This document shows positions 1-32,000 of a DNA stretch of 32,000 nucleotides, one piece after another. The notes under the pieces were generated by a model. The model was not told the origin of the DNA, searched no databases, and saw nothing but the letters and a program-made list of their open reading frames with translations. The DNA is from Candidatus Saccharimonadota bacterium (GTDB taxonomy: Bacteria > Patescibacteriota > Gracilibacteria > BD1-5 > UBA6164): contig OY782392.1 of NCBI GenBank assembly GCA_963677765.1, positions 120,001-152,000 on the forward strand. Direction: 5' to 3'. How positions within the stretch are numbered: position 1 is the first letter of the stretch; every line of letters begins with the position of its first letter. The translations under genes and the position numbers were made by a program.

Positions 1-411
1 GCAAAATTTCAAGAATTAGGTGTTGAAATATTAGCAGCTTCTACTGATACTGTTTTTTCTCATAGAGCATGGGTAAAACATGAAAAACTTATGCAAGGTT
101 TCCCTTATAAAATGCTTGCTGATCACAATACTGAAATAGCTGATTTATATAATATATTAGATGAAGAAACTGGTATTGCTGGTAGAGGTACATTTATAAT
201 TGATCCAAAAGGTATAATTAGAGGTATAGAAGTTACTAGTGGACCTTTAGGAAGAAATAGTTCTGAATTAATAAGAAAAATTGAAGCATTACAATTTATG
301 GAAGAAAATCCTGGTACTGCTTGTCCTGCAAAATGGGCAGTATGAGCAAAAACTTTGAAACCATCAATAAAAATTGCTTGAGAAGTAGGTGAAGAATTAG
401 AAAAATAAAAA
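1..411 (+). CDS. ahpC: 2-Cys peroxiredoxin, AhpC/Tsa family (5' end cut by window edge)
   Basis: Frame 1 is open from nt 1. The translation STDTVFSHRAWV...GRGTFIIDPKGIIRGIEVT...PGTACPAKW follows AhpC, including the resolving Cys. Reading TGA at 346 and 382 as Gly extends the ORF to TAA 409-411 and recreates the AhpC tail (CPAKW..G..TL.PS). Confidence 0.9.
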
Positions 412-421
412 ATAAAAAAAT

Positions 422-447
422 AGAGATTTTAAAATCTCTATTTTTTT
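422..447. terminator. bidirectional rho-independent terminator between convergent ahpC and the YtxH-like gene
   Basis: Perfect palindrome agagatttt/aaaatctct (422-439), flanked by an A-run upstream and a T-run (441-447) downstream. Confidence 0.7.
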
Positions 448-926
448 ATGTTCTTAATTTCATTTTTTAAATCATTAAATGAAGTTAATAATTTTTCTTT
501 AAGTTCTTCAACTTTAGCTGGAGCAATTCATTTTAATTCTTCTATTTCTGATAATTTTTCTTTATATAATTCTTCTAATTTTTCAGAAGTTGTATAAATA
601 TAAGATTTACCTTTAACTCTTAATTCTTCAATCAAAATATTTCATTTTTCCTTGTAAGAATCAATTATTTTTATTATTTCTTCTTTGTGTTCATTAAAAA
701 TAGCTTTATTTTTTTCACTAAGTAATTCTTTTTTTAAGTCATCAATCATATTAGCATGAGTATCTACAAAGTTATCCATTATAACCTTAAAACTTCATTT
801 ACCAGACTCTTTAGCTGATTCTAATTCTGTTTTTAATTCTTCAGGTTTTTTCTTTGAGTAAATAGAAGCTACTATTCCCCCAGCTATATATCAAGCTGCT
901 AATAAAAAAATATTTTTTTTAGACAT
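438..926 (-). CDS. small N-terminally membrane-anchored protein, YtxH-like (162 aa)
   Basis: ATG at 926 runs to TAG at 440-438 with TGA read as Gly. The N-terminus MSKKNIFLLAAGYIAGGIVASIYSKKKPEEL (Gly-rich helix, then a charged helical region) resembles the YtxH family. The frame was checked codon by codon at both ends. Confidence 0.6.
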
Positions 927-1005
927 ATCTATATAATTAAAAATTAACTAAAAAAGCATACTTAAAAAAGTCTAGTAGTTTTTAACATAAAATAAAACCT
1001 TCAAC

Positions 1006-1143
1006 TTTGTATAAAGCTTTTTTATGATATAATTAAAATAAGATACAAATAATAATTTGTATATGCTTATTAAAAGCTATATTTGATATTTTGTATTATT
1101 TTTTTATACAAAAAAGCAAAAATAGTCACTAATATTATACAAA
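1006..1143. promoter_or_regulatory. array of six TTTGTAT/ATACAAA heptamers in the ytxH-like/clpC divergent intergenic region (candidate operator cluster)
   Basis: Copies lie at 1006-1012(-), 1043-1049(+), 1056-1062(-), 1090-1096(-), 1106-1112(+) and 1137-1143(+). Copies 2 and 3 form the perfect palindrome atacaaat-aata-atttgtat. Copies 4 and 5 form TTTGTAT-N9-ATACAAA. Copy 6 sits just upstream of a TATAAT at 1148-1153. Confidence 0.45.
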
Positions 1144-1187
1144 ATATTATAATATTTGCAAAAATTAATTATTAACAAAAAAGATAA

Positions 1188-3761
1188 ATGTCATATAACA
1201 ATTTTTCTGAATGATATAGAAAAGTATTAATAAATGCAGAAAATAATGCAAAAGAAGTTTGAATTAAAGAATTAACTATAGAAGATATATTTATAGAAAT
1301 TGTAAAAAATTCTACTTGATGAATAAAAGAGATATTTAATCTATATTGAATTAATGAAAAACTAACTATAGAAATAATAAACAAAGGTATATTCAATGAA
1401 ACAATAGAAAAAAGAAAATGAGTATATTCTTGAATGAATAATAGATTAAAAAATGCAATACTATGAAGTGTCAAAATAGCTGCATCATTTGCAAAAGACA
1501 AAGCATCTATAGAGGATTTTTTACTATCTATTATAGCAAATGATTCTTGGATAAATAGCTTTTTAGATTATATCGGAATAACTCCTAGTGATGTTGAAAA
1601 AAATCTAAGGGAGTTAAATAAACTATGAGCAATTGATTGAGTTAAACCTTGATTCCCTATAGAAGATGATTCTGAAGATATAGAGTTAGAATGAGAAGAA
1701 TCTATAAATAAATTATTATGAGCTTTGACTCAAAATTTATTATGAGAAAATCAAGCTACTCCATTTGATATGAACAAAGAACAAAAATGATCAAAAAATA
1801 GTGATTCTACTACTCCAGCATTAGATTTCTTTTCTACTGATTTAACAAAAGAAGCTAGAGAATGAAAAATAGATAAAATAATATGAAGAGATATAGAAGT
1901 AGAAAGACTTATAGCAATATTAAATAGAAAAACAAAAAATAATCCTGTTTTAGTATGAGAACCTTGAGTTGGTAAAACAGCTATAGCTGAGTGATTAGCA
2001 CTTAGAATTGCAGCTTGAGATGTTCCTTTTTCAATGAAAGAAAAAAAAGTATTATCACTAGATATGTCATCATTAGTAGCAGGTACTAAATACAGATGAG
2101 AGTTTGAATCTAGAATAAAACAAGTTATAGATGAAGCATCTAAAGTAGAAAATGAAATAATTCTTTTTATAGATGAAATCCATACTATGATAGGTGCAGG
2201 TTGATGAGAATGATCACTTGATGCTTCAAATATATTAAAACCTGCAATGGGTAGATGAAAAATAAGAATTATCTGAGCAACTACCTACAACGAATACAAA
2301 AAATATATTGAAAAAGATTCAGCATTAGAAAGAAGATTTCAACAAATTACAGTTAATGAACCAGATAAAAAAACTGCAAAATTAGTTTTAGAATGAATAA
2401 AAGAATCTTTTGAAGAGTATCATAATTTAAATATAAAAGATGATGCTATAGAAGAAGCTATTGAATTATCAACTAGATATATTACTGATAGATATCTACC
2501 TGATAAAGCTATAGATTTGATAGATGAAGCTTGTAGTATAAAATCTATGAAATATAATTTTGATGAAACTGAAACAAAAAAATTAAAAGAGAAGATTGCA
2601 AAAAATAACAAAGATATAGAACAAGCTGTAATAGCTCAACAATATAAAAAAGCTTATAAATTAAAAGAAACTCAATCAGAATTAGAAAAAAAGATACAAG
2701 ATTTAAAACAAAAATTTCAAGTACCAAAAGAAAAAAGAATGAATGTTGATGCTAATGATGTACAAAAAATACTTAGTATAGCTACTTGAATACCTGTTTC
2801 TAATTTATCAAAAAATGAAACTCAAAAATTAAAAGATTTAAAGAAAAATATAAAATCTGAAATTATATGACAAGACAAAGCTATTGATGCTATAATAAAA
2901 TCAATAATGAGAAGTAAAGCAGGTATTTGAAATCCTAATAGACCTCTTTGAAGTTTCTTGTTTTTATGACCTACTTGAGTTGGTAAAACTGAGTTAGTAA
3001 AAGTATTAGCAAAATATTTTTATGATGATAAAGATGCTTTGATAAAGATAGACATGAGTGAATTTTCAGATAAGACATCTGTAAATAAACTTATTGGTTC
3101 TAGTGCTTGATATGTATGATATGAAGAATGATGATTACTTACTGAAAAAGTAAGAAAAAAACCATATAGTGTATTACTTTTTGATGAAATAGAAAAATGA
3201 GATTTTGAAGTTTATAATTTATTATTACAAATTTTAGAAGAATGAGTTCTAACAGATAATAAATGAAAAAAAATAAATTTCAAAAATACAATTATAATAA
3301 TGACAAGTAATATAGGACAAGAAGAATTCACAAATAAAGCTTCTACTATATGATTTGATATAGAAAAAAAAGAAGAAGAAAAGGTAATGGCTGATTATGA
3401 AAAAGCTGCTGAAAATATAAAAAATAACCTTACTGATTATTTTTCTCCTGAATTTATAAATAGAATAGATAAAATTCTTATATTTAATCCTCTAGATAAA
3501 AATCAAATAAAGAAAATAATTACTTTATGATTAAAAGATTTAGAAAATAGACTAGAAAAGAAATGATTAAAAATAAATTATGATAATAAAGTAATTAATT
3601 TTATTACAAAAGATGTTTATAATCCAGACTTTTGAGCAAGAGAAGTAAGAAGATACTTAGTTGATAAAATAGAAGATTTAATAGCTGAAAAAATAATTTC
3701 AGGTAAAAAACAAGATGAATTTACTATTGAAACTGAAAAAGAAAATTTACTTATAAAATAA
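1188..3761 (+). CDS. clpC: ATP-dependent Clp protease ATP-binding subunit ClpC (two-AAA+ class, 857 aa)
   Basis: ATG 1188 to TAA 3759-3761 is open only if TGA is a sense codon. It has a Clp N-domain repeat and Walker A motifs GEPGVGKT (1956-1979) and GPTGVGKT (2967-2990). It also has a short UVR-like middle motif ([18 protein letters not shown]), GYVGYEEGG, and an IGF ClpP-docking tripeptide. The short middle domain favours ClpC over ClpB. Confidence 0.92.
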
Positions 3762-3769
3762 GTACAAAA

Positions 3770-3794: not shown

Positions 3795-3796
3795 GT

Positions 3797-3824: not shown

Positions 3825-3854
3825 ATTTTTATTAAATATAAATTAATCTTAAAT

Positions 3855-5468
3855 ATGAAAAAAAATTTCATAATTTTTTTAATCATATGAATTTCCCTTT
3901 TATGGCAAAATAATAGTTTTGCTTTTGTTTTGGACTTTAATAGTTCATGATTTTATTCAAACATATCAGAAAATATAGATTTTCTAGAGTGAAATATATA
4001 TACTATAGATTTAGAATGAAGTAATTGAACTAGACAAAAAATTAATGATTATTCAGGAATAAATTGTTTAAATGATGATTTAAATGAAAATGAAATAAGA
4101 GATATAGTTATAAATTGAAACATAGGCTTTATAACTACAAAAATAAGCGAATCATGTAAAGATGAAGAATGAAGAATAAGTGTTGGGGATACAAATAAAT
4201 TACTATCATCAATATCAAAATTTCATAATGAAACAGTTGAAAAATCTAGAGAAAAAACTAGACAATTAATAAATTTATGATCAACTTGAATATATACAGA
4301 TTGACTTGATGAAAATTCCCCTTTTGATTTAATAAAGGATTTAGAAAAAATTGATTCAATTATATTTTCTGAGCCAAGTACAGTTTATGAATGAAATGAA
4401 TTTATAGATATATTTTCAGATATAGAAGAAAAAGCTCAAGATATAAAACAAAATTTATCAGTTAATAGTAATAATCTAAATAGTATAGATAATTATTCTT
4501 ATGATAATAATGAAAATTCTCTTCCAGAGTGAGTATATCCTATATTAAATAGTGATTGAGTACCTATTTTTAGTAAAAATCATTGTACAATAACATCATG
4601 AGATTCTTGATTAAGTACAAACACAATAATAAACGTAAAGAATAATATAAATAATGAATGAGTAGATAATAATCCAAGTAATCCAAACGATAATAATAAT
4701 CAACAAAATGATAACAATAATAACGAATTAGAAAATAATAATGATGAATGAGAAAATTATTCATGAAATTATTCAAAAATAAATGATAACAGTCAATTCC
4801 CTTGTGATTCAATTTTTTGTATAGATATTGAATTTATAACTTATCAACATAATCTTCTATGATGATGATTTCAAGATATAACTATTGAGTATCTACTAAA
4901 TAGATCAAATGAGCATCTAAAAAAATTTGCAGCAACATCGCTTGTACAATCAAAAATGAGTTTAAATAATTTCGAACTTTGATTAAAAGATTTAAATCTT
5001 CCAGATATATTCCATTTATGATTTCAAGTTAGCACAAAACCTGTACCTATACTTGAACTAGTTCCTGAAGAAAAAGCAAATGAAGATTCTTGAATTTTTG
5101 AATCAGAAAATATGTTAAAGTTTTATTATGAAAGTTATTGATTAGATTATAACAGAAGAAATGATTTATCTTTGATAACTCAAATAGAGAGAGATAAACA
5201 ATCTTGACTGAATTCTCAGTTATCACCCATATCAACATTTACAAACAATATATGATGAATAAGTGATTATATGGATCAAAGACTTAAACAAAGAGAAACA
5301 ATGAGAATGGCAGTTGAAAATTTAACTCAATGATGAAATATAAGTAATTTTGAAACGCAGCTAAAAGAAATATCTACATTTAATAAATCTATAAATGATT
5401 ATGTAAATAATCTAGCTGCAATAATAAAAAATATGAATAAAATACCTCAAGATACCTGAACAAATTAA
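3855..5468 (+). CDS. secreted hypothetical protein (537 aa) with an Asn/Asp-rich low-complexity insert
   Basis: The full ORF was hand-checked under code 25 (ATG 3855 to TAA 5466-5468). It has a signal-peptide-like N-terminus MKKNFIIFLIIGISLLWQNNSFAF. I recognise no family. Confidence 0.8.
4639..4795 (+). repeat. Asn/Asp/Gln-rich low-complexity coding tract inside the 3855-5468 gene
   Basis: It translates as NNINNEGVDNNPSNPNDNNNQQNDNNNNELENNNDEGENYSGNYSKINDNSQ. It is compositional, not strictly periodic. Confidence 0.6.
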
Positions 5469-5470
5469 AA

Positions 5471-6784
5471 ATGAAAAATAAACTAATAACATTTTTTGTA
5501 ATATTTATTAGCATAAGTTTAAATACAACTTATGCTAATAATGGTGCTTGTAAAATAAAAGATTCTACTAATCAAAATATTATTGACTATATAGATAATA
5601 ATAGAAAAATAATAAAACTTATAACAGATGAAATAATATCAGGTTCATCAAATAAAGAAGAAAGATCTATAAAAAATAATTTAAAGAAAAATTACGAACA
5701 AATAAGAGGTCCTATATTAAGAATATACAATGAATCCTTTGATTTTTCTTGATATTATTCATATTTTAGGTACTATGCTGTTTACCCTATCTCAAATGAA
5801 GTACCATATGAAGTAAAAAGAGACTATAATATACTTGAAAAAGAATCTGAAGGTATAAAAATGATTATAGAAAAAGTAGCCGAGAGATGATTATCTAATA
5901 CAACTATTGCAGATGCATGTAAAAATATATGAGATGATTTTGTATGTAATATAGAAAATAATATAAATGTAGAAAAATTATTATCTATATTATTAAAAAA
6001 TAATACTAGAATTTTAGACTTATATAGAAATGTTGTTATCTGAGAATGAGCAAAAGATTATAATGATTTGATTTTAGTATCAAAAGATTTTGTAAAAATT
6101 ATAGAAACAAATTATAATCCAATTTCAAATGCAGAATGTAGTAAAGAATGATGATTTTTTGAAAGAATATCTAAAGCAATTCAAAATATATGAACACTTA
6201 ATAAAGAATGAAGAGACTGAGTTCAAAAATGGAAGGATGCTGTAGATTTATTATTACAAAAAGATATGAGTGATGAAGAATATCAAAAAATAGAAAAAGA
6301 ATTGTTAAGAAAAGAATTATCTAGACAATGAATTTCTTGAGATAGTCAACAAAATATGCTTGATGCTCTTGATAAATTCAATAAAAATAACTGAATGTCT
6401 TTGGATAATAATTTTTTGTATAATACTTTTAATAATACTTGGCAAAAATTAGAAAAAGAATTTAAACAATTTAATAAAGAAATTATTTGAGATTTCTTTG
6501 ATAAAAAAGATACTCCTGAAATTAGTATTTGAAATACAAATCTTGCAAAAAAGAATAGCCAAATAACAGCAGATGTAGAATACAGAATAAAAGAATTAAA
6601 TGAACAATTAAAAAACTTCGAATCTATTTCAGAATTTGATACTAATAATGTTGTATCAAAAATTATAGATATTCATATAGAGATAGCGAACTCCACAGAA
6701 GTATTACAAGATAGTTGTAAAGTAGCGGTACAAGTATGTGAAAAACAAGACGCTTCAAGATGAAACTGTTGAAAATGTAATTAA
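5471..6784 (+). CDS. secreted, mostly helical Cys-containing hypothetical protein (437 aa)
   Basis: ATG 5471 lies 2 nt after the previous stop, and TAA is at 6782-6784. The frame was checked line by line under code 25. It has a signal peptide MKNKLITFFVIFISISLNTTYA and a C-terminal Cys cluster CKVAVQVCEKQDASRGNCGKCN. Confidence 0.8.
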
Positions 6785-6810: not shown

Positions 6811-7554
6811 ATGTTATCGAAAAGAGAAATTGAAATAATGAGACAAAATGCTAAAATACACAAAAAAGTTTTTGATGAAATAAGAAAAACTATAAAAGAA
6901 TGAGTAAGTGCTGTTGAAATAGATCAATTATGTTGAGATATAGCAAGAAAACATAATGTATTATGTGGTTTTAGATGAGTATATGGTTTTCCAAACAATA
7001 TATGTATAAGTGTAAATGACGAAGTTGTTCATTGAACTGCTAGAGAATGATTAATATTTAAAGATTGAGATTTAGTTACATTTGATTTTTGAATAAAAGA
7101 TAAACAAGTATGAATAAATACAGATGCTGCAATATCATTGATAGTATGATGAGATGATAAAAATCCAAAATGAGCTAGACTTATAGAAGCTAACAAAAAA
7201 GCATTATATGCTGGTATTGCAAAAGCTAAAGTATGAAATACAACATGAGATATATGACATGCTATAGAAACTGAGATAAAAAAATATGGATATAAAGTTA
7301 TAAAAGACCTAACATGACATGCTATTTGAAAAAAACTTCATGAAAAACCTTATATATATAATTTTTGAACTCCTGGAACTTGAACAAAATTAAAAGCATG
7401 AATGACTTTAGCAATAGAACCTATACTATGAGAAACTAGTTGAGAAATTGTTGATGAATGAGGATGGGAAATTTATACAAAAGACTGATGATTAGGTAGT
7501 CAATATGAACATACAATATTAATAACTGATTGAGAACCAGAAATAATAATATAA
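6811..7554 (+). CDS. map: type I methionine aminopeptidase (247 aa)
   Basis: The translation contains GFPNNICISVNDEVVHG, DLVTFDFG, TGHAIG, LAIEP and YEHTILIT. This is the MetAP-I metal-ligand pattern. Several conserved Gly are encoded by TGA. Confidence 0.9.
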
Positions 7555-7638: not shown

Positions 7639-8559
7639 ATGTTACTAAAAGAAGCTCATAATAAGTTTTTAAATTACTTAGAAGTAATAAAAAATAAATC
7701 TCCTAGAACAGTAGAACAATATGATAGGCATTTAAATAAATTTAATGAATACATAAAAGAAAAAATAAATAATAATGAAAAATTCAAAGTAGAAGATATT
7801 AGTTTAGATATAGTAGAATGATTTAGAAGTTATTTATATGAAAAAAGAAGAAATATATCTATAAAAACTGCTAACGCATATATGATAACTATAAGAAGTT
7901 TTCTAAAATTTCTTGAAAGGAAATGACATAAAAGTTTATCAGCTACTTCAATAGATTTGATAAAAGCAGAAGAAAGACATGTTGAATTTTTAACACCAGA
8001 AGAACTTGAAAGATTATTTAATGCTCCAAATAAAAATAATATAACTTGATTAAGAGATCTAGCTATAATGGAATGCATATATTCTACTTGACTTAGAATA
8101 TCTGAATTAACAAGTTTAAATAAAAAAGATATAAATTTAAAAAGAAAAGAATTTGCTGTTAGATGAAAATGAAGAAAAGTAAGAGTAGTTTATCTAACAA
8201 AAAAATCTGCTGATTTAATAAATCAATACTTAGAAGCTAGAAATGATAATCTATCACCTCTTTTTATAAGACATAATATAAAAAAAGAAAATATTTTATG
8301 ATATGATGATGAAAAATTAAGACTATCGAGATTTTTTATAACTACTATGATAAAAAAATATGCTTTAAAAGCATTTATCCTAAAAGATATTTCAGCACAT
8401 ACTCTAAGACATAGTTTTGCAACAACTTTACTTAGTAATTGAGCTGATCTAAGAGCAATACAAGAAATGCTATGACATGCAAGTATAACTACTACTCAAG
8501 TATACACTCACGTAACAAACAAAAAATTAAAAGATGTGCATAATAAATTTTTTAAATAA
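7639..8559 (+). CDS. tyrosine site-specific recombinase, XerC/XerD family (306 aa)
   Basis: It has an N-terminal SAM-like core-binding domain. The catalytic pattern is GLRISEL (Arg), HTLRHSFAT (HxxR) and GHASITTTQVYTH (His and Tyr). C versus D cannot be decided from sequence. Confidence 0.88.
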
Positions 8560-8599: not shown

Positions 8600-9529
8600 T
8601 TATATAAATTTTATATTATTTTTATCTATCTCAAATATAGAATCTTTTCTCTCAAAAACCAAATGATAATTTATTCAATCAATAGAAAAATTATCAAAAT
8701 TATCAATAACTTTTCTTTCTGGATTAACAAAATAAAATTCATTTCATTTATCTAATGCATAACTAATTCAAAAGTCACTTGAAGTATCTCACATTCATCA
8801 TAGTGTTTTAATTATTATATTTTTATCTTTTAATATTGTTATGAATTCTTTTTTATGTTCTCTTCACCATAATGGAGTATATTCAAGAGAGTTTAAAAAA
8901 ACATTCGATCAGAATCAAAATACATTATTTGAATATGATTCTCATATATTTTTTGAAATATATTGTTTTAATAAATCCAAATAAACATCAAAAACAAAAC
9001 TTGGAGCTCATGAAACAAATAAAAAATTTCATCAAGACAAAAGTATTTCTTTTATTTTACTAACAGAAAATCTAAAAGGAGTTATTTTTTCTTTAGTTCT
9101 AAAGCTATAAATCAAAAAATTTATATATGAATTCCAATCAATTAAATCCTTATGTTTTAATAATAGATAAATACCAGCATTTAAATACTCAAAATACTCT
9201 ATTTCTTTATTATATGCTTTTTTTTCAAGCTTTGTAAAAAACTCTAAATCTTTTAAAAAAAGATAATAATTATCAAGATTAAGTTCCAAATAATTTTGTT
9301 TTTTCAAATACTTAACAAAAGCAGTAACTGCTTCTTTTTGTAAAACTCACCTAAAAAAAGTACCATCTAAATCAGAAATAAAATAATTTCAAGAATGCAT
9401 TAAAGACATTTTTTTCAAATAATAACTTTGATTAAGATAATCTGTTCTAAAATTTATTCATAAATGTTCAAGTATATCTTTATCATTGTTATCTTGTTTA
9501 AGATAATCCAGTACTTTTTCTAAATTCAT
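8600..9529 (-). CDS. HAD-superfamily hydrolase, subfamily IB-like (309 aa)
   Basis: ATG at 9529 to TAA at 8602-8600, with the frame checked line by line. HAD motif I is SDLDGTFF, motif II is FVSGAP, and motifs III/IV are GDTSSD. Confidence 0.75.
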
Positions 9530-9645: not shown

Positions 9646-10170
9646 ATGAAATTGATAGTATGATTAGGTAATCCTTGAGACAAATACAAGCAAACAAGAC
9701 ATAATATATGATTTATGTTTTTAGATTATTTAAAACAAAAAGAAAAATTTAATGAATTTAATTTTGAATCAAAGTTTAAATGAGAAATAAGCTCTTGAAT
9801 TTTAAATTGAGAAAAAACTATATTATTAAAACCTCAAACATTTATGAATCTTAGTTGAGAATCAATAAAAAAAGTATTTGATTTTTATAAATTAAGTATA
9901 GATGATTTAATAATTATATATGATGATATGAGTATGGATTTTTGAAAACTTAGATATAGAGAAAACTGAAGTGCCTGATGACATAACTGAATAAAAGATA
10001 TAATAAGATTATTTTGACAAGATTTTAAAAGAATAAAAATATGAATTTGATATGATCAAAAATATGAAGTTAGTGATTGGGTTTTATCAAAATTTATTGA
10101 AGAAGAATTAATAGATTTGGAAAACGAAATATTTAAAAAAACAAAAATTTTACTTGATGAAAAAAATTAA
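9646..10170 (+). CDS. pth: peptidyl-tRNA hydrolase (174 aa)
   Basis: The translation [23 protein letters not shown]...GSAGGHNGIKDI is the canonical Pth signature. Its Gly residues are encoded by TGA. Confidence 0.92.
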
Positions 10171-10171
10171 A

Positions 10172-11500
10172 ATGAAAAAAATATATATAATAGGAATATG
10201 ATGAATTTGAATATCGGCAATTGCTAGATATTATAATCAAAACTGATATGAAGTTTATTGAAGTGACTCTTATGATTCAGAACTTATTCAAAATTTAAAA
10301 AATGAATGAATAGATATAATAATATGAAATATACCAGAAAGGATAGATAATAATTTTGAAAAAGTTATTTATACTGAAGCAATAAGAGAGGATAACAAAG
10401 AATTAGTCAAAGCAAAAAATTTATGAATAAAAACAATTAGTTATCCTGAATCAGTTGCAGAAATTGCAAATCAAAAAAAACTAGTAGCAATATGTTGAAC
10501 ACATGGAAAATCAACAACAACATCAATGGCATCAATCTTATTAAAAAATTCAGATGAAAATTTTACTTCAATAGTTTGAACTATATTAAAAGAATTTGAT
10601 AGTAAAAATTTTTATCATAGAAATAAAATAAAAAATAATGATGAATATTTTTTATTAGAAGCTTGTGAATATAAAAGAAGTTTTTTAAAATATGAACCAA
10701 GTGTTGTTATAATAACAAATATAGAAATAGATCATTTAGATTATTATAAAAATCTTGAAGACTATATAAATGCATATAGACAATTAATAGACAATATGAA
10801 ATCATGATGATTTGTTATATTAAATTGACAAGAAAATAATTCTAGACAATTAATATGATACAGAAATGATGTCAACTATATAATAGTAGACAATGATAAA
10901 TATACTTATAATTGACAAGAATTCATAATACCAGAATTAGACATAAAAATACCTGGTAGACATATATATTATGATGCTAGTCTAGTTTATATACTAGGGG
11001 AAATGTTATGAATAAAAAAATCTAATATATTAAAATCATTGTCTATGTACAATTGAGTATGGAGAAGAATGGAAGAAGTTTGACAAACTAAAAACGGCAA
11101 TATAATACTTAGTGATTACTGACATCATCCTACTGAAATAATTCTTACACTAGAATCTATAAAAGAAAAATATAAAGACAAAAAAATAGTAACTGTCTAT
11201 CAACCTCATCAATATAATAGAACTATAGAATTATTAGATTGATTTAAAAATGTATTTAAAAAAAGTGATATCTTAATTGTTCCAAATATTTATGAATCTA
11301 GAGATAGTGAAGATGATAAAAAAAATATGAACACAGAAATATTTTTAGAAAACATAAATCATACAAATAAAATAAACTGAAATTGATTAGATAATACATT
11401 TAAAATAATTGAAAAATTTGATAATGAAAATAAAAATTTATTAATTGTTTTAATGTGAGCATGAGATGTTGATAATTTGAGATATAAATTAAAAGTATAA
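10172..11500 (+). CDS. murC: UDP-N-acetylmuramate--L-alanine ligase (442 aa)
   Basis: It starts 1 nt after the pth stop. It has IGIGGIGISAIA (Rossmann fold), the [12 protein letters not shown]-loop (TGA at 10496-10498 is the first Gly), [10 protein letters not shown] and DYGHHPTE. Confidence 0.9.
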
Positions 11501-12500: not shown

Positions 12501-12537
12501 GATATTATATTTATATTATATTTGTAATTTATTCTTT

Positions 12538-12852: not shown

Positions 12853-12885
12853 AATAATATAATTTACTTTTAATAAATAAAAAAT

Positions 12886-14745: not shown

Positions 14746-14764
14746 TTTATTAAAATTTAATATT

Positions 14765-21795: not shown

Positions 21796-22215
21796 CTAGT
21801 TAACACTTACATCAATACCACCAGTTGGATCGATTCTGTCAGTTTCAATTATTGAACATGTTGTAGTTTCATATGGATAGTCAGCAGTATGTCTTCAACT
21901 CGCTCAACCTGTATTAGCAAAAGCTCACATATTAGTATAACCAGCTTCACAAGAAGTTCTTCTATGATGGTAAGCTACTTTTGTAGTTTTTGTACCATAA
22001 CAAGTTCTAGTACCACTTTGAGTCCAAGAATCACATCTATTAATTTGACATGGTTCATTTGTAACTGATTTTACACAAATATAATCAGGATTAGCAGCTA
22101 CTTTTTCAGTACCAGCCATAAAACCAAAGTAAGATGCACCAGATATAGCTAAAACAGCAACAACTGCCATAGCAGATTTAACAGCTACATTATTGTTAGT
22201 ATTTTTTTTAGTCAT
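21796..22215 (-). CDS. small Cys-rich membrane-anchored or secreted protein (139 aa)
   Basis: The ORF-track fragment 21925-22215 continues through three TGA codons to TAG at 21798-21796. The N-terminal helix is AMAVVAVLAISGASYFGFMAG and the ectodomain has six Cys. The gene is locally GC-richer than its neighbours by eye. Confidence 0.75.
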
Positions 22216-22283: not shown

Positions 22284-23846
22284 TTATCTTATATGAAAAA
22301 AAGGTAATTCAACAGTTCATTCAGTATCAATAACTCTATGTCAGACATTTTCCCAAGCTCATTTTTCTCTATTTAGAGTCCACCGAGCTGGCCATCTAAG
22401 GAATTGATTTCAAACTAAGAAATCAAAATCTATTGGATATCATCATTGTTCTTCTGAATAATCAACAAGAAATTGCATATCCTCATCTGTTATAGCACCA
22501 TATAGATTATCAGCATTTGAATATAATTCTTCCATATGATAAACCTTGTTTTGAAGTATAACAGGATTATCTGATTTAGTATATAACTCTTTTCATGTAA
22601 TATTATCAATTATTTGAATATATGGCATTCAAAAAGTTTTCATTGTATTACCTAAATAACCATAAACAGGTCAGAAAGTATCAGAATTAAGTAGATTTGT
22701 AGTATTAGTATCTCTGTTGAATTGATATAAATAAACAGTTATATCTTTATTCTCATATTTTTCTAAAGTATCACTATAATATAATGAATCATAAGGTATA
22801 AAATATGAAGAACCATCCATTTCTAATACATAATATCTAGCATTAGTATAATCATCACTATTTTCAGAGTTAACTTTTATAATCTTATCTGCTTTATTTA
22901 ATGTAAAACTAACAGTCATATTTTTAAAGTCAACTGGTGATCAATATTGATTTAATCATATAGTTACATATCAATCAGAATATCATTCATATTTTGCTTT
23001 TAATCTAATATGAGTAAAAGGATCAAAACTTCATGAGTATTCAAATTTTCAATCTTTTGTTGTAGCTATATCTTGTCAAAAATTAAGTATTTCTATTATA
23101 GCTCAATCTATAGGAGCTCAAGATTGATCAATAACTACTCAATCTAAATTAAGTGTTATTTTTTCTATATCATCTTCTCTTAATTTATTAGCTTCATCAT
23201 AATCTCATCTTAGATCATATAAATAAGCTAATAACTCTTCTTGATTTTTTGATAAATTTGATTGATTTAAATCATCAATTACATTATTTATATTATTGTC
23301 TTGACTAAAAACATTTACAGCTAATACATCATTCAAAACTGAAGTAAGTGGATGTTGCAAATCTCTTTCAAAAGTTATTTTATGACTAGATGAAGAGTTA
23401 TATCATCAATATATTAAATTTTCTTTATAAGAAGAATATATATCTAAAATAGCTAAGTTTTTATATCATTCTTCATCAAAAATATATCATTCTGTTTTAA
23501 ATCTATAAGGTATATATGTTATATTTCAGTTAGAATCTTTTTTTCAAATGGCAAAATTTTCTTCTAATGGATCAAAATCTATACCTTCATAATCTTTTAG
23601 TTCCTCTAAGAAATCTCAAAATTTTTCATATTTTTCAGGATTAATCCCAATTTTATCATAATTTTCTTGTGATAAAGTATCTGTTATCAAAGAATCCATA
23701 TGATATTGTCATTCATATTGTTCCAAATAATCTGGCTGACTACTAAATTTTTGTTTAATATCAGATCAATTAATAGAAATAAGAAAAAATAACAAAACAG
23801 AAACTATGATAAGCGGTATTATGTAGAAAATATTATTGTTTACCAT
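22284..23846 (-). CDS. N-terminally membrane-anchored protein with a carboxypeptidase-regulatory-like beta-sandwich domain (520 aa)
   Basis: The frame was checked line by line (ATG at 23846, TAA at 22286-22284). The transmembrane segment is IFYIIPLIIVSVLLFFLISI. The segment LDGVVIDQSGAPIDGAIIEILNFGQDIATTKDGKFEYSGSF...LKAKYEGYSDGYVTI fits the CarboxypepD_reg pattern. Confidence 0.75.
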
Positions 23847-23950: not shown

Positions 23951-25552
23951 TTATTTTGTTCAAATAAAAATATTTGTATTTTTTATTTTATTTGCTAAAA
24001 ATAAAATAAAAACTTTTGAAACCCACATTACAGTAAATAATGATACCAATATTCAAATTGCTAACATTAAACCAAATCATTTAATTAAATTTATTCAAAA
24101 TATAAAAAGTATTAAAGATACTATTAATCATGTTATATTTGAATCCCATATAGCTGACCAAGATTTTTCAAATCATACTTGAGTAGCTTTTACTATATCT
24201 TTTGTTTTTTGTAATTCACTTTTTACTCTTTCAAATATCAATATATTAGCATCAATAGCCATTCATATAGAAAGTATAAGACCTGCAACTGAAGCAAGAG
24301 TAAGAGTTACTCATAGTAATTTTATTACAGTTAAAACTACTAATATATATATAAATAATGAAATAGAAGCAGCTAATCAAGCTAATCTATAAACAAATAT
24401 TAAGAAAACAAATATCAAGGCAAAACCAGTTACTCATGCCATAACTAATTTAGTAAGAGAGTCTCATCAAATTTTTGAATCAATAACTCTCTCTGATGTA
24501 AGATATATAGGTGCTGGAACAACTCATGTATTGATATCTTGAGATAATTTTTTAGCTTCTTCTGGAGTATAATTACCTGTTATAACAGCTTTACCTCAAT
24601 ATATAGGTTCATTAATAACAGGAGCAGTTAAAAGCTCTCATCATACAAATATAGCCATTTGTTGACCAACTAATCTTTTTGATAATTCACCAAATATTTC
24701 AGCTCAATCAGTATTAAAAACTAATTCAATCATTGGCTTAAATGCTTCATTATATTGAACAGAAGATGTAACAAAGTATTTATCATTTAATTCTCTTCAC
24801 TTAGTATCTGTAGCATTTTTCCATTCTGATGGAGTACTAGAAACAAATAAATAAGTAGATTGATTATTTTCTATATCTTCATAAAGTAAAAATCATTCAT
24901 CTCCAGAAACTAAAGTTACATTATTTATTTTTCAACTAACTAATTCTCAAGTACTAGAAACAACATCGTTTATATTTGAAACTGTAGCTGAACTAACTTT
25001 TTCATAAGCAAGAGTGTATTTATCTACTAGAACTTGAAATAGTTCTCCTGAATTATATTCGTCTAATAAATTAGATGCAATTTGACTTCTTAAATCTAAA
25101 TCTTCTTGAGTTATAGTATTTCTAAGTTCTTTAAAACTTATTTTTACTACCCTACCTATAGCTTCTTTAGCTTTTTCAATATTTTCTGAGTTTTCCATAG
25201 AGTCATTACCTTTTAATGGTATTTGAACTATAATATGTTTTTCTCAAGCATAAGAAGCATCGTTTATTTCAGAGTCATTTATATTTAAAGATTCTATTCT
25301 TCTATCTATTATAGATTTTAATCATTCTATTATTTCTTTTTCTTTTTGACTATTATAATCTTCTTCTTTTTCTACTTCAGATAAATCAACTTTATAATCA
25401 AGCTCTATTCATCATTGTAAATCAAGACCTAATTTGTAATCCTTTCATGAAAAAGGCATTTCTATATTGTAGTTATGCCATGGAAAAACATAAACAAAAA
25501 CCATTAAAAAACCTATAAATATCAAAAATAATCTAAAAATAATATGTCTCAT
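23951..25552 (-). CDS. secD: protein translocase subunit SecD (533 aa)
   Basis: The frame was checked line by line. It has an N-terminal transmembrane segment, the hallmark LGLDLQGG, a large periplasmic domain, and a C-terminal six-helix bundle (IDANILIFERVKSEL, ITGLIVSLILFILG). Confidence 0.88.
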
Positions 25553-25682: not shown

Positions 25683-26738
25683 TTATTTATTTTGTTCTTC
25701 TTTTTTATTAGCCAATTGACCACATGCTGCATCAATATCATCTCACATAGTTGCTCTTATAGTTGATACTACTCAATAATGAGTTAATATTTTTTGGAAT
25801 TTTTCTATTATAAACTTAGGAGTTGGACTATATTCTATTCAACCCGCTCATTCTCAAGGATTATAAGGTATAAAATTAACATGAGCTAATCTTCATTCTA
25901 ATAGTTTTCATAATTCATGAGCTAATTTTATATGATCATTAACACCATTAATCATTATATATTCATAAAAAATTCTTTTATTTGTTTTTTCTACATAATC
26001 ATCTAATGAAGCCATTAAGTCTTTCAGTGGATAAGTATGGTCTACCGGCATTATTTCTCTTCTTATTTCATCATTTGGTGCATGTAAACTTATAGCCAAA
26101 CTAGTTTGAGGAAAGTCAGCAGTAAATTTTTTAATACCTGGAACTATTCAACAAGTAGATACAGTAACTCTTCTATTTGCCAAATCGAATTTTTGTTGAC
26201 TATTTGCTACATTAATAGTTTCTTTTACAACTTCATAGTTAAGCATAGGTTCTCACATACCCATATAAACTATATTTCTAAGTTTATTACCTTCATCATT
26301 AAGTAATTTAGCAGCATAATAAATTTGCTCTATAATTTCATAATTTTTTAAGTTTTTTAATAAACCTAATTTTCAAGTAGCACAAAAACTACATGCCATA
26401 GGACATCATGCTTGACAAGAAACACAAAGAGTAACTCTTCAAGTAAGATGTCTCATTATAACAGCCTCTATATACTCACCTGTTTCAGTTTTGAATAATA
26501 ATTTTGTTGTTTGTCAGTTAGAACTAGTTTTTACACTATCAACATCCATAGAGTAAAAGAAACAATTTTCTTTTAATGCATCTCTAACTTTTTTTGATAA
26601 AGTAGTCATTTCATCAAAATCAGTTATAAAGTTTTTATATATCGCATTTTCTATTTGTTTATACCTAAATGGTTTTTCTCAAATACTTTCTAATAAATCT
26701 TTTACTTTTTTTTCATCGTGTATCGAAATTTTTTGCAT
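25683..26738 (-). CDS. rlmN: 23S rRNA/tRNA adenine-C2 methyltransferase RlmN (radical SAM, 351 aa)
   Basis: The frame was checked line by line. It has the radical-SAM cluster CPMACSFCATG, preceded by CVSCQAGC, plus GMGEP, LAISLHAPNDEIR and the C-terminal AACGQL. Confidence 0.9.
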
Positions 26739-26805: not shown

Positions 26806-27453
26806 ATGAAAAAATCAAAAGTAGCAACATCTATAGCTGAAGCCATGGTAGTTTTGACTATAATAGTATTATGATTAACATGAATCTATAATATATATAA
26901 CAAATCAATGGATTTAACTATAGCAGTTGAAAATAAGATTCAAGCAATTCAAATAGCTAGAGAATGAATAGAAGCTGTAACAAATATAAGAGATACAAAT
27001 TGGCTAGTTTTTACATCTGACCCAAATAATTGTTGGAAAACCTTAAACTATGATGATAGTTGTGTTTGAGAAAGCGATCCTTTATCAAGAATAGATATAA
27101 ATGATGGTAGTTATAGAGTATATAGAAATACAGATAATAGATGGGAACTAGATTGATGATGAGCTATATCATGAGATTATAGCAATACTCCATATAGAGA
27201 GTTTTATAAAATAAGACTAGATAGTAATTGATTATATACTCAAGATTGAACATGAACAGATTTTAATCCAGTTTATACAAGAGAAATACAAGTAACAACT
27301 ATTGATGAAACATCGATAGATCCAAATACATGAAATCCTTACTATACACAAGCATTTGAATGACTTATGATTAAAAGTATAGTTTATTGGTCCGAAGAAT
27401 GAAGAATAAGAAATGTTAGCATAGAAACAATAATAACAAATTACAAAAAATAG
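26806..27453 (+). CDS. prepilin-type N-terminal domain protein (type IV minor pilin or pseudopilin-like, 215 aa)
   Basis: The frame was checked line by line (ATG 26806 to TAG 27451-27453). The N-terminus MKKSKVA-TSIAEAMVVLTIIVLGL has the charged leader, Glu at +5 and hydrophobic helix of class III signal peptides. It is followed by a PilV/GspI-like helix, AVENKIQAIQIAREGIEAV. Confidence 0.5.
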
Positions 27454-27485
27454 AAGCCTAAGAGATAGACTTCTATTTTTATTTT
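27447..27485. terminator. hairpin terminator shared by the convergent pilin-like gene and the 1228-aa gene
   Basis: A 10-bp stem aaaatagaag/cttctatttt with a 13-nt loop, then tttttatttt. It overlaps the stop of the minus-strand gene. Confidence 0.55.
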
Positions 27486-30400
27486 ATAAGATCATTTATT
27501 TTAATTTTTACTTCCTCTTCTGTTTGTCAAGGAATATCTTTTCATTTATTCATAAATGCCTTGTAGGCTTTTTCTAAATAATCTTCTTTTGAAGCGAATT
27601 TATCTTTATCATATAAACCAAATCATACTTCTTCTATCATAACATCAATAATAGGATTTCAAGCTCATTCTGATTTACTAAATCTTCATGATACTTCTTT
27701 TATATAATCAGAGAAAAATTCAAATTGTTCTTTGAAAAGCTCTTTTCTTTGTTCTTCTGTAACTCAAGTTTCATCTCAAACTTTATAGTTTCTAATAGTT
27801 TCAAAAGAATTTATGTACATGTTATACATATCTTTACTTGTAGGTCTTCATAAACCTCATGTTGGGTCAGAAGATATTTTTGAAATTCATCATTTTGTAA
27901 AAGCAATAGGATTTTTCTTATAAACTCAATAAGTTATATCATCATCTTTTACATTGAATTCTCAATCACTATGAACTCAGTTTAACATCTCATAATATTG
28001 TTTATAAACAGGTTCTTCATTTCTTCTCATTATAGTATATGGGTCTGATAAGTTTATATGGTTTATAAGTTGTTTTCAATAAGTAGTCCAGAATTTGTAT
28101 ATAGCTTTTACTTTTTTTTCAGAATCACTTTCTTGTTTTGCAGCTCTAAATTTTTTCATTGCTTCAGATTCAGCTCCTCATAATTTATCAACTATTACTT
28201 GTTCTATAAAATTGTTATACAAATTTATTCAATCACTATCTTTATTAAAAATAAGAGTAGTAAAAGGAGTTGAAAAACCTAAACCTATAAGTTTATTCAA
28301 TAAAACTTGATCCATATTTTTTGCAAAACCAGAAATAGTCAAAACAAAAGGAACTGCATTCATTTCAAAAGAACTACCATTTTTTCAAAAAATATTTTCC
28401 AAAGAACCAATAGCATTTGCATATCAAAGTTTTTCTAATTCTCATAAAAAATAACTAATTCTTCATTCCGTTGTTATTTTATTACCAGATTTCATAGCTC
28501 AATCTTCCATTTCATCTCTCATACCTCAAGCTAAAGCTCATCAAAAATCTTTATCTAATCTAGATCTAATAGTTCATCCTTTAGCTCTATCTCATAACCA
28601 AGATTCAACTAATCTTTCTTCTGTAAAAAAGATTGGTTGAGGTTTTCATTCTGGAGATTTAGCACTTGCAATTCATTCTTTGAATTTAGCTAATTTCGAT
28701 TGAGTTCATCATAATCTTTTATACCATAAAAGACTTCAAGAATATTTTCTTAATTCTTTTGGATATAAACTACCATATTTTCAAACTACTGTCATCATTG
28801 CAGCTATAACTTCGTATTCTTCTGAATTTTTATTCAAAAGAATTTTCTCTACTTGTTTTATCATATCTTTTGATCAAAGAGATTTCAAATTAGCCGATAT
28901 TTCTTCAGTAAGAGATTTTTCTTCTTGCTCAGCAGCTGATTTCATATTTAGATAAAATGTATCTGGTCATAGTTTTGCCATTTTTTGTGCAAACTTCAAA
29001 GATTTTAATTTACTTCATCTTTCTAAAGTTTTCTTTATATTCTCAGGAAAAAACTTAATTGCTCACATCAAATCAGCAAAACTCATTCTTGACATATATT
29101 TACTAAGACCTGATCATTTTAAACTTTTTTCTCAAAAAATTTCTTCTGGAGACTTTTCTTCTTCCTTTATTCCTTTTAAATAAGGAGATAATTTATATTT
29201 TTCTATATCATATAAAAATTGTGAAAAATTCTTAGCATTATATGAATTTTCTCAAGACTCAAATTTAAATCAGTCTTTTGATTCTTTAAAACTTCATTTT
29301 GTATATTCTATTTTATCTTTTCATATTTTTCTTATATATATAGCATCTCAATTTTCTCAAACAAAATATTTTACTCATGTATAAGTTTCACTTTGTGAAA
29401 GTTTTTCATCTGATTTTAGGCATATCTTGTCAGAGTTTTTTCATCATATATCAAGTGAATTAAATCAACTTAATCATAATTCTCAAGCAGTCGAAACAAA
29501 ACTATCAAAATTATTAATTTTTTTTCTTCTTTTGAATTTTGATTCTTTAAATACTTCAAAAAACTTATTAAAATCTACATTTATACTTCATCATGCTCAT
29601 TGATTTATAGTTATAGTTTTACTACTTTCATCTATAGAATCAACCAAAAAGATAAAATTTTCATCATCATTACTAGATATAACCATTTCATCAGATTTCA
29701 TTTTTATAGATTTTCATTCTGGATCAATTGCATCTATTTTATTTTTTAATTGATCTATAGTATTTATATTGTTATCTTCTACCATTTCTTTTTCTCCTAT
29801 ATCTTTTTTTTCATAAAAATTAATAGATATGTCTTTGTTATCTGGCTTAGATATATTTTTTAATAAACTATAAAAATCATCGTATAAATAATTTTCTTCT
29901 GCTCAACTAAGATCCTTTTTAAATCAATTGGGAGTAGTAACATCTTTTAGCTTTAAAACCTTTGACTCAGCTACTGATCAGTGATCAACTTTTGATATAT
30001 AATAATAAGTAAAATGAGGATTTCATTTTTTATCAAAATATTGTAGTTCTATAAAATTTTTCTCTATTAATTTATTTATAGACTCCCTAATATAAGGTGA
30101 AATACTTTTATCTTTTGAAATTTTTTCTATAAAAGATTTATGAATATTTTGTTCTTCTCATTCTATATCTAATTCTCATAAAATAGATTCTTGCATAGAA
30201 TTATTTTGTTCTATTTCACTATTATATATATCAATCAATCTAGATTTTATTTTTTCATCATTAAATAAATCTTCTATATTATTAGAGTTTTCTAAATCTT
30301 CTAAGTCTATAAAATAACTTTTTTTATCAAGTGAATCAAATATTTCTTTTATTTTTTCATCTTCTAATCATTCTATAAGATTTTTAGAGTCAGATTTAAA

Positions 30401-31165
30401 TTTTTCAAATATTTTTTCTTTTAAACTATCTGATAAAATATTATTTTTTTTCAAATCATAATAAGATATAGTTTCCAAAAAATATTTAATCAAAGCTTTT
30501 TTTGATCAATTATTTAAAGATTGAAGCAATATATCCAATCATTGTAAATCTATTTTTGAATTACTATTAAATATACTAAATAAATAAGTTATTTCTTCTT
30601 GATTTAAAGTAGATAAATTTATATTTATTTCTCTTTCAAGCATAGTTTTTATTTCTTTTTTTGCAGAAAGAGCAGTGTTTTTATCTGAAAAGATATCATT
30701 TTTAATCAAAAAATCTAATCTTTTATTTGGGTATTTCAATAAAGATATCAAAGTATTATTATCTAGTTTTGATAATGATGTATTTAAAATATTTTTTGAA
30801 TTATCATCAAGAGTATATTCAAAATTATATTTTTCATTTAATTTTTTAAAGTTTGATTTTCTAGGTAGAGTTAGTTTTAATACCTCTGATTTTAATTGTG
30901 AAGTTATAGTTTCAATTTTTGATTTTTTTAATCCACTCAGATTTAAAGATAAGTCTTTATACTCATCTCTAATGCTAACAAAAGAAAAATAATCAGTGTA
31001 AATTTTTGATATATCATATTCAGAAGAATCAAAAAAATCCATATTATCTTGAAGTTTTGATAATATAAAATCATTTTGAGATTTTGATAACAATGATGTA
31101 TCAATTGTTTTTTCTTTTTGAGAATTTTCTATAGAATTAGAACTATTTTTTCAAGAAAGAGACAT
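27479..31165 (-). CDS. large orphan hypothetical protein, apparently cytoplasmic (1228 aa)
   Basis: All lines were checked and there is no TAA or TAG in frame (ATG at 31165, TAA at 27481-27479), with an in-frame TAA four codons upstream of the ATG. It has no signal peptide, no transmembrane segment, and no P-loop or HExxH. It is rich in K, E, S and N. Confidence 0.8.
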
Positions 31166-31192
31166 AGTATTTACTTAAAAAATATTTGTTTT

Positions 31193-31221
31193 ATTATAAC
31201 ATTTTTTGAAAAAAAAAGCAA
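31193..31221 (-). promoter_or_regulatory. near-consensus sigma70-like promoter of the 1228-aa gene
   Basis: On the minus strand: TTGCTT (31221-31216), an exact 17-nt spacer, then TATAAT (31198-31193), 27 nt upstream of the ATG. Confidence 0.55.
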
Positions 31222-31307
31222 AAAATAAATAAATTAAAAATAGACTTTTAAATATTTTATATAAAATCAATACATAAAGATTAATTAAAAAATAACAATT
31301 TTTAAAA

Positions 31308-32000
31308 ATGTATATAATAATATGAATAATTGTTGCTATAGTTATGTTTTCTATAATTGTTTTGATACATGAATGGTGACATTTTGCAGCAGCAAGAAAA
31401 TTTTGAGTAAAAGTAGAAGAATTTTGATTATGAATACCCCCAAGAGCAAAAAAACTTTTTTATGATAAAAAAGGAACTCTTTTTAGTTTAAATTGGCTAC
31501 CTATATGAGGTTTTGTTAAACTAACATGAGAAACTCCTAATACTTTTAATGTATATAATAAAGAAAAAAAGCTATATAATAATTTTGATTTAGAAAAAGA
31601 CATAAAAGATTGAAAAGATATTTTTGATATAAAATGAGCTAAATTATCAAAAGTAGAAAAAGAAGAAATACTAAAATCTTTAGATGAAAACAATGCAGAA
31701 TATAATCTTGCTAATAAACCAAGTTGGCAACAAGCGATAATTATATTAGCCTGAGTATTTATGAATTTTGTATTAGCTTGGTTTATATTTTTTGTATTAT
31801 TTTTGATTTGAGTATCACCAATATGAATAAACTCAAAAATAGAAACTGATTTAGATTTAAAATTAATTCCGACTTATGAACAAGCAATAGAGAGATGATT
31901 AATCATAAAAAATCCATGATTAGTTCTATATCCTATAGAATGAAGTATAGCTGAAAAATCTTGATTAAAAGAATGAGATATTTTGTATGAAGTAGCTACT
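31308..32000 (+). CDS. rseP: site-2 (M50) zinc metalloprotease RseP family, 3' end cut by window edge
   Basis: The N-terminal transmembrane segment is followed by HEWGH (31368-31382, with TGG=Trp directly next to TGA=Gly). Then come FGVKVEEFGLG and LNWLPIGGFV, and a PDZ-like region begins (IEGSIAEKSGLKEGD). Confidence 0.88.

Follow-up and report, generated by a model that had tools for sequence, protein, structure and literature searches.

The DNA analysed here, hereafter the window, is a stretch of 32,000 nucleotides with a GC content of 23.5%, and is densely coding: once TGA is read as a sense codon, 22 genes occupy 95.5% of its length. Pfam assignments were obtained for AhpC, a ClpC-type AAA+ protein, Map (M24), an XerC/D-type integrase, Pth, MurC, SecD, RlmN and an M50/RseP protease, in agreement with the homologues of ClpC, MurC, Map, Pth, SecD, RlmN and RseP that a first-pass annotation had claimed to recognize.

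The AhpC peroxiredoxin gene, g01 (positions 1–408, forward strand), is 5'-truncated at the window edge (Pfam AhpC-TSA, 1e-18) and contains 2 TGA and 11 GGN codons. It is followed by g02 (438–926, reverse), predicted from the ORF map to encode a coiled-coil membrane protein with 4 TGA codons and no Pfam match above the cutoff, and by g03 (1188–3761, forward), a double AAA+ ATPase of the ClpC type that is supported by Pfam, aligns to Bacillus subtilis ClpC with an E-value of 7e-176 and has 45 TGA codons in frame. The ORF map then gives g04 (3855–5468, forward; 31 TGA) and g05 (5471–6784, forward; 17 TGA), whose predicted products are secreted, lineage-specific proteins that returned no match in the Pfam search and have homologues in related loci. 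The methionine aminopeptidase gene g06 (6811–7554, forward) is identified by Pfam (M24, 1e-30) and by alignment to PDB 3tb5, and 25 of its 247 codons are TGA. The tyrosine recombinase of the XerC/D type, g07 (7639–8559, forward; Pfam, aligned to PDB 1a0p), contains 9 TGA codons but lacks GGN codons entirely. No function was assigned to g08 (8600–9529, reverse; ORF map, 16 TGA), which had no accepted Pfam match.

Peptidyl-tRNA hydrolase is encoded by g09 (9646–10170, forward; 15 TGA; Pfam, 1.5e-46; aligned to PDB 4yly and 4qt4) and MurC by g10 (10157–11500, forward; 24 TGA; Pfam Mur ligase domains; aligned to PDB 9ir5 and 1gqq). The four forward-strand genes that follow are taken from the ORF map, and their Pfam matches were weak and sub-threshold only: g11 (11523–12500), a multi-pass membrane protein, g12 (12538–12852), g13 (12886–14745), and g14 (14765–17587), a 940-aa secreted protein with 56 TGA codons. 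On the reverse strand lie g15 (17675–21730; 87 TGA), a 1351-aa secreted paralogue of g14, g16 (21796–22215; 3 TGA, 9 GGN), which encodes a small Cys-rich secreted protein, g17 (22284–23846; 29 TGA), which encodes a lineage-specific protein of 520 aa, g18 (23951–25552; 26 TGA), which encodes SecD (Pfam, aligned to PDB 5xan), and g19 (25683–26738; 14 TGA), which encodes an RlmN/Cfr-type radical SAM methyltransferase (Pfam, aligned to PDB 9p0p). The remaining genes are g20 (26806–27453, forward; 14 TGA), a small protein with a hydrophobic N-terminus, g21 (27479–31165, reverse; 66 TGA), a 1228-aa protein with no assigned function, and g22 (31308–32000, forward; 17 TGA), an RseP/M50 site-2 protease that is 3'-truncated at the window edge and assigned to Pfam M50. 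With glycine substituted at TGA, Pfam searches of g08, g11, g14, g20 and g21 returned sub-threshold matches only.

The best 20 genome matches in a search with SecD were all metagenome-assembled genomes, with 50–76% identity in the scan and a GC content of 0.20–0.37. Nine of them are labelled Ca. Gracilibacteria, the rest being generic Patescibacteria, 'Peribacteria' or an unnamed bacterium, and TGA recoding was found in all 20. Matches 21–30, which include Saccharibacteria and Nealsonbacteria among others, have normal code-11 ORFs. Synteny is common to the window and the related loci. The labels and the recoding of the top matches would place the organism within the Gracilibacteria/Absconditabacteria group, and the lineage named in the first-pass annotation is right at the level given, because the nearest genomes are TGA-recoded whereas remoter Patescibacteria of the same search are not.

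TGA as a glycine codon

Under code 11 no stop-to-stop ORF in the window exceeds 203 aa, and the longest that runs from start to stop has 184 aa, the latter reproducing the figure of the first-pass annotation. When stops are limited to TAA and TAG, the longest ORFs reach 1374, 1231, 960 and 857 aa, whereas in 200 shuffles of the window the longest TAA/TAG-free ORF averaged 120 aa and never exceeded 210 aa. No long ORFs emerged when TAG or TAA was made sense instead, the longest being 203 and 299 aa, respectively, so a comparison of ORF lengths between codes yields long ORFs only with TGA read through. Of the 21 complete genes, 18 terminate at TAA and the other 3 at TAG, as had been claimed, and the protein lengths match those of homologues. 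UGA is thus a sense codon in the window, and UAA and UAG, the only terminators of code 25, terminate here.

To assign this codon, nine window proteins were aligned pairwise to solved-structure (PDB) homologues from standard-code organisms. TGA codons fell opposite glycine in 93 of 138 columns and opposite tryptophan in one; GGN codons fell opposite glycine in 37 of 50. In clade alignments comprising approximately 70 related loci, TGA occupied conserved-Gly columns in 3190 of 3638 cases and Trp columns in none, while TGG occupied conserved-Trp columns in 659 of 718. These family alignments strongly support a reading in which TGA is glycine, neither tryptophan nor a stop, and in which tryptophan is still encoded by TGG. 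TGA is also the major glycine codon, as had been proposed, accounting for 531 of the 698 glycine codons in the window (76%); among relatives, its share rises from approximately 22% to approximately 90% as GC content falls.

The individual codons that the first-pass annotation had singled out are all in frame as stated. In ClpC, the P-loop TGA codons at 1956, 1965, 2967 and 2976 (aa 257, 260, 594 and 597) lie opposite the glycines of GEPGVGKT and GPTGVGKT in B. subtilis ClpC, and the count of four TGA codons among the six P-loop glycines agrees with ours. The MurC TGA at 10496 (aa 114), within GTHGK[ST]T, aligns to AGTHGKT; in RseP, TGG at 31374 adjoins TGA at 31377 (aa 23 and 24) in an H-E-W-G-H motif that aligns to HEFGH of Escherichia coli RseP. 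In Pth, TGA falls opposite glycines of GLGN and SAGGHNG, both TGA codons of AhpC lie opposite the two tail glycines of PDB 1we0, and the SecD motif LDLQ-TGA-TGA aligns to GLDLKGG.

An assignment of TGA to tryptophan would correspond to genetic code 4, which is used by Mycoplasmatales and several insect endosymbionts. These organisms resemble the one studied here in having AT-rich genomes in which UGA has been captured as sense, low GC content together with TGA read-through being typical of them too, and a public protein collection stores such proteins translated in this way. However, standard-code homologues favour glycine over tryptophan at TGA by 93 to 1, TGA encodes the catalytic glycine of the Walker A, HExGH and GLGNPG motifs, and tryptophan would account for 5.7% of residues and glycine for 1.6%, compared with 0.5% and 6.9% when TGA is read as glycine. 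The window also encodes MurC, which functions in peptidoglycan precursor synthesis, a pathway that the wall-less Mollicutes are not known to possess. We reject code 4 on the column counts as extremely improbable, in line with the earlier judgement that it does not fit. The idea that TGA is still a stop, and that the locus is pseudogenised or mis-assembled or relies on selenocysteine or programmed read-through, finds support in nothing but the fact that TGA codons occur in frame. It would need to accommodate 531 such codons in 22 genes without in-frame TAA or TAG, frames and lengths that agree with homologues end to end, and the same pattern in approximately 70 related loci from independent assemblies; moreover, selenocysteine cannot explain 5% of all codons. 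On the strength of ORF statistics, conservation and column counts we reject pseudogenes, selenocysteine and read-through, which we regard as less probable still than code 4.

CGG codons in tryptophan columns

Apart from TGA, code 25 leaves all codons at their standard meanings, whereas in this clade CGG is found in Trp columns. The other codons examined, namely TGG, the four GGN codons, CGA, CGT, CGC, AGA and AGG, showed nothing anomalous. CGG occurs twice among the 10,167 codons of the window, and one of these codons is well aligned, that at 22383–22385 in g17 (aa 488). This codon lies in a Trp column, with tryptophan in all eight other aligned loci; among 42 database homologues, the same column holds R in 21, W in 19 and F in two. 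Where the DNA of homologues with 'R' was read, the codon was CGG in four of four, the sole CGG of each gene, the usual Arg codon of these genes being AGA. The other CGG of the window, at 19802–19804 in g15 (aa 643), is in a poorly aligned column with tyrosine in three homologues.

In related loci whose GC content does not exceed 0.28, every one of the 21 conserved-column CGG codons is in a Trp column. These codons, among them that of the window at g17 aa 488, represent eight distinct columns in five genes and not 21 independent events, because inherited codons are counted. In related loci with a GC content of 0.355–0.45, the columns that hold CGG are Arg, Lys or Ile columns; since one locus of GC 0.359 (L164) also has CGG in a Trp column, GC content alone fails to separate the two states. 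Other one-step neighbours of TGG were not found in Trp columns (AGG 0/228, GGG 0/249 and TGA, as above, 0/3638). CGA is absent from the window; in the clade it lies in Arg columns in 96 of 117 cases overall, and in nine of ten among loci that have CGG in Trp columns or a GC content of approximately 0.33 or less. CGA as arginine and CGG as tryptophan occur together in two loci, L011 and L102.

These observations can be set against plain NCBI table 25, in which TGA is glycine, CGG is still arginine, and CGG codons in Trp columns are real Trp-to-Arg substitutions. In favour of this reading, no official code other than table 25 exists for the lineage, arginine is indeed what CGG encodes in relatives of higher GC content, and the extreme rarity of CGG leaves few data within the window. 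Substitution, however, sits poorly with a codon that in low-GC relatives occurs solely in otherwise invariant Trp columns and never in Arg columns, and with the retention of the same g17 CGG across species-level divergence (the window, L081 and L001) and the presence of CGG at SecD column 129 in four loci. Furthermore, the 'R' of the g17 column is always CGG where read, and never AGA, and AGG, which likewise encodes arginine and is one step from TGG, is never found in Trp columns. We consider plain table 25 unlikely, and the alignments suggest that both CGG codons of the window most likely encode tryptophan. The claim that the window is written in code 25 thus stands with respect to TGA as glycine, but the code is probably incomplete given these two CGG codons; the working code would probably be table 25 with CGG reassigned to tryptophan.

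With a probability of roughly 0.93, we interpret the window as a normal part of the chromosome of an uncultured and very AT-rich member of the Gracilibacteria/BD1-5 group (Patescibacteria/CPR) in which UGA encodes glycine and CGG encodes tryptophan. It is likely that a low-GC subclade of Gracilibacteria has split CGA from CGG, such that CGG is a second Trp codon while CGA, which is nearly extinct, still encodes arginine. To our knowledge, tryptophan at CGG in Gracilibacteria has neither been confirmed experimentally nor been entered in an official translation table.

Decoding machinery and comparison with known codes

The window resembles code 25 (SR1/Gracilibacteria) in its use of UGA for glycine, UAA and UAG as stops and UGG for tryptophan, in its low GC content, and in the Gracilibacteria labels of its nearest relatives. 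It differs in that the table keeps CGG as arginine, and in that TGA here is no minor additional codon. Glycine at UGA is an already known phenomenon in Gracilibacteria and no discovery of ours: it has been described for Gracilibacteria and Absconditabacteria along with identity rules for tRNA-Gly(UCA) (PMC8629427), it has been validated by proteomics (PMC6851277), and prfB is missing from all BD1-5 genomes examined (PMC6851277). Tryptophan at CGG is already a published computational prediction for part of the Gracilibacteria (Shulgina and Eddy 2021, PMC8629427). The variants predicted by Codetta in that study place it atop UGA as glycine, in Absconditabacteria and 'some Gracilibacteria', and show the same split between CGG as arginine and CGG as tryptophan among Gracilibacteria as do the relatives of the window. 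The Absconditabacteria code differs in that CGA is tryptophan there as well, whereas CGA lies in Arg columns in the present clade.

From published work on the group, a tRNA-Gly(UCA) would decode UGA, release factor 2 would have been lost, and AT mutational pressure would have made TGA the dominant glycine codon. ARAGORN and Rfam scans of the window returned no RNA gene, and ARAGORN found no tRNA-Gly(UCA) with G1:C72, C2:G71, G3:C70 and U73 in the window or in 64 related loci, where tRNA-Lys(CUU), tRNA-Trp(CCA) and tRNA-Glu(CUC) were the only tRNAs detected. No tRNA that reads CGG and has tryptophan identity (G73, no A20) was detected in the window or related loci. When 4756 ORFs of the related loci were scanned for the GGQ motif, no release-factor gene of either type emerged, a result that is uninformative on the loss of release factor 2. 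Because neither such a tRNA nor a release-factor gene lies in these regions, we infer the decoding machinery rather than observe it. Low-level ambiguous decoding may exist beside the assigned meanings.

Since UGA encodes glycine and CGG very probably encodes tryptophan, standard translation tables mistranslate the window. Code-11 pipelines shatter the locus, while those that fall back on code 4 return full-length proteins with tryptophan at approximately 5% of positions, and table 25 itself probably mistranslates the rare CGG codons. The first-pass warning of mis-annotation was well founded, because the window's own g17 is stored in a large public protein collection as a code-4 translation, in which glycine is read as tryptophan at all 29 TGA codons; the four relatives that we checked are likewise stored there as code-4 translations. 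Across the whole lineage, such mistranslations introduce errors into family alignments, predicted structures and searches for homologues. The value of these findings is practical, in annotation, and not conceptual; they confirm published predictions and open no new question. If the split between CGA and CGG is true, the window would carry two departures from the standard code, and its code would be intermediate between table 25 and that of the Absconditabacteria, in which CGA and CGG are both tryptophan. The rise of TGA with falling GC content among the relatives, together with the split between CGG as arginine and CGG as tryptophan, illustrates codon capture under AT pressure.

Reading frames and the identity of TGA

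With the three standard stops in force, the window (GC 23.5%) holds no stop-to-stop frame longer than 203 aa, and its longest start-to-stop ORF is 184 aa, the same length that the first-pass annotation had given for code 11. Of the alternative stop sets compared, only TGA read-through gives long frames (1374 vs 203 aa): dropping TGA from the stops yields frames of 1374, 1231, 960, 857 aa and shorter, whereas making TAG or TAA sense instead leaves a longest frame of only 203 or 299 aa, respectively. In shuffled versions of the window (n = 200), the longest frame free of TAA and TAG had a mean length of 120 aa and a maximum of 210 aa. Reading TGA as sense resolves 22 closely spaced genes that together occupy 95.5% of the window, in which TGA occurs in frame at 52 per 1000 codons. 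Within the coding frame TAA and TAG are seen solely as terminators, ending 18 and 3 genes, which bears out the earlier claim that all genes end in one or the other.

Nine window proteins, with TGA masked, were aligned to their best solved-structure homologues, all from standard-code organisms: B. subtilis ClpC, S. aureus Pth, E. faecalis Map, MurC, Cfr/RlmN, D. radiodurans SecDF, E. coli XerD, E. coli RseP and A. xylanus AhpC. Opposite TGA, the partner residue was Gly at 93 of 138 aligned positions, followed by Asp (7), Ala (6), Glu (5) and Ser (5), with Trp found once; opposite the four standard glycine codons (GGN) it was Gly at 37 of 50. On these counts TGA behaves as a normal glycine codon. 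The first-pass annotation had read TGA as Gly and not Trp, and had proposed tabulating the residues opposite TGA in ClpC, MurC and Pth; over the nine proteins Gly predominates and that reading stands. In these alignments TGA falls at glycines of the ClpC Walker A motif, MurC GTHGK[ST]T, Pth GLGNPG and SAGGHNG, RseP HExGH, SecD LDLxGG and the AhpC tail, and each coordinate quoted earlier was verified as an in-frame codon at its position. TGA was also rightly called a major glycine codon, as 531 TGA vs 167 GGN codons give it a 76% share. If TGA is Gly, the window proteins contain 6.9% Gly and 0.5% Trp; if it is Trp, they contain 5.7% Trp and 1.6% Gly.

Two genes run counter to this 76% bias, the AhpC gene (1-408; 2 TGA and 11 GGN) and g16 (21796-22215; 3 TGA and 9 GGN), which are also the highest-GC genes of the window (0.31 and 0.32 vs 0.235). 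Their GGN excess may reflect selection for GGT under high expression, or the genes may have been acquired recently. In g07 (7639-8559), a XerC/D-type recombinase of 306 aa, all nine glycines are encoded by TGA, with zero GGN.

Recoded relatives and the CGG codon

A scan with SecD against one genome per GTDB species returned, as its best 20 matches, MAG sequences of 50-76% identity (top match JASMTS010000006.1), nine of them labelled Candidatus Gracilibacteria and others including generic Patescibacteria or 'Peribacteria'. All 20 are TGA-recoded, with GC of 0.20-0.37; the ten matches ranked next (Saccharibacteria, Nealsonbacteria and similar) have ordinary code-11 ORFs. Gene order is common to the window and its relatives. 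A metagenome scan with RlmN added approximately 55 recoded relatives, among them an 11-kb ENA contig (L081) that shares 91-98% protein identity with the window. Amongst the related loci (L001-L020 and L081-L147) the TGA share of Gly codons climbs as GC drops, from 0.22-0.26 at GC 0.365 through ~0.4-0.6 at 0.27-0.32 to 0.7-0.9 below 0.26. CGA is plentiful in higher-GC relatives (≤74 per locus) and almost extinct in low-GC ones.

A Codetta screen predicts that CGA and CGG encode Trp in Absconditabacteria, and that CGG does so in some Gracilibacteria (PMC8629427). For this reason the window proteins were aligned with orthologues from recoded loci, with TGA, CGA and CGG masked, and each codon was scored by the conserved column in which it fell. 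TGA fell in Gly columns (3190/3638), TGG in Trp columns (659/718), and AGA and CGA in Arg columns (1981/2257 and 96/117), while CGG was divided between Trp (21), Arg (14), Lys (2) and Ile (1). The 21 Trp cases are spread over eight distinct columns in g05, g17, SecD, g20 and RseP, and every one belongs either to the window or to one of 16 related loci of GC ≤0.28; the Arg, Lys and Ile cases are confined to eight loci of GC 0.355-0.45, so that the division by locus appears clean. Mutational noise could in principle place CGG, one step from TGG, in Trp columns; the other one-step neighbours were absent from the same columns (AGG 0/228, GGG 0/249, TGA 0/3638), and noise was therefore rejected. 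Two relatives, L011 and L102, each combine CGA = Arg with CGG = Trp.

The window itself contains two CGG codons and no CGA. One, at residue 488 of g17 (22383-22385, minus strand), lies within the motif LRWPA-x-WTL in a column that is Trp in 8/8 other aligned loci. Amongst 42 database homologues this column holds Arg 21 times, Trp 19 times and Phe twice; in the four Arg homologues whose DNA was fetched the codon is CGG in every case, the only CGG of its gene, and AGA is the usual Arg codon. The other, at residue 643 of g15, falls in a poorly aligned column that is Tyr in three homologues. From these codon patterns, CGG very probably encodes Trp in the window organism, and table 25, although right for TGA, is therefore very probably incomplete. 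The code 25 assignment of the first-pass annotation thus holds for TGA = Gly and probably falls short at CGG, for which table 25 has no Trp reading.

Database records and gene content

The warning that default gene callers would mis-annotate the locus was borne out. Database protein P0001 is identical to g17 (22284-23846) save that 29/29 TGA codons are rendered as Trp, meaning that g17 is stored publicly as a code-4 translation, and the entries of four fetched relatives (L161-L164) were matched under code 4 alone. P0001 is encoded on an NCBI/ENA contig of 1,048,296 bp, evidently the genome from which the window derives. At window TGA columns, the g17 homologues (P0001-P0042) carry Trp 470 times and Gly 186 times.

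A Pfam search with X at each TGA identified AhpC, a ClpC-type double AAA+ ATPase, methionine aminopeptidase (Map), a XerC/D-type recombinase, peptidyl-tRNA hydrolase (Pth), MurC, SecD, RlmN and an M50/RseP protease, recovering all seven homologues, ClpC to RseP, that had been named from sequence. The other window genes matched no Pfam family over threshold; they encode lineage-specific products, several secreted or membrane-bound. Two of these, g14 (14765-17587) and g15 (17675-21730), are convergent genes for giant secreted proteins of 940 and 1351 aa, and are paralogues (34% identity across ~590 C-terminal residues, E 2e-75). A weak Big_1 match is the sole Pfam signal in g14, the one of the pair scanned. 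Both diverge fast among relatives (27-54% identity), with the exception of near-identical L081. In L161 and L162 the g15 homologue directly adjoins opposite-strand MurC and Pth; in the window g11-g14 (11523-17587) stand between the Pth-MurC block and g15. Since homologues of g11, g12 and g13 were found in only two related loci apiece, this block looks variable or inserted. The multi-pass membrane protein g11 (11523-12500) has a below-threshold match over nearly the full NQR2/RnfD/RnfE profile (E 1.4e-5, 25.1 bits vs a cutoff of 27.7). The N-terminus of g20 (26806-27453), MKKSKVATSIAEAMVVLTIIVLG..., resembles by eye a type IV pilin/pseudopilin class III signal with a hydrophobic helix after it. 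The protein has no Pfam match, and its homologues adjoin RlmN in ~50 related loci.

Decoding machinery and standing of the recoding

The window has no tRNA gene or Rfam match, tRNA-Gly(UCA) and tRNA(CCG) were not found in the 64 related loci scanned, and no release-factor gene occurs amongst 4756 ORFs of those loci. Given these results, the decoding mechanism of this organism would rest on the BD1-5 literature, which describes tRNA-Gly(UCA), RF2 loss and proteomic validation of UGA = Gly (PMC8629427; PMC6851277).

The earlier finding was accurate and its interpretation supported, the single refinement being a probable Trp reading of CGG. Recoding of UGA to Gly has been published since 2013. 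That of CGG to Trp was predicted in 2021 (PMC8629427). Close relatives of the window sequence are already present in public databases. The TGA = Gly call is correct and a useful flag for annotation, not a novel type of system.
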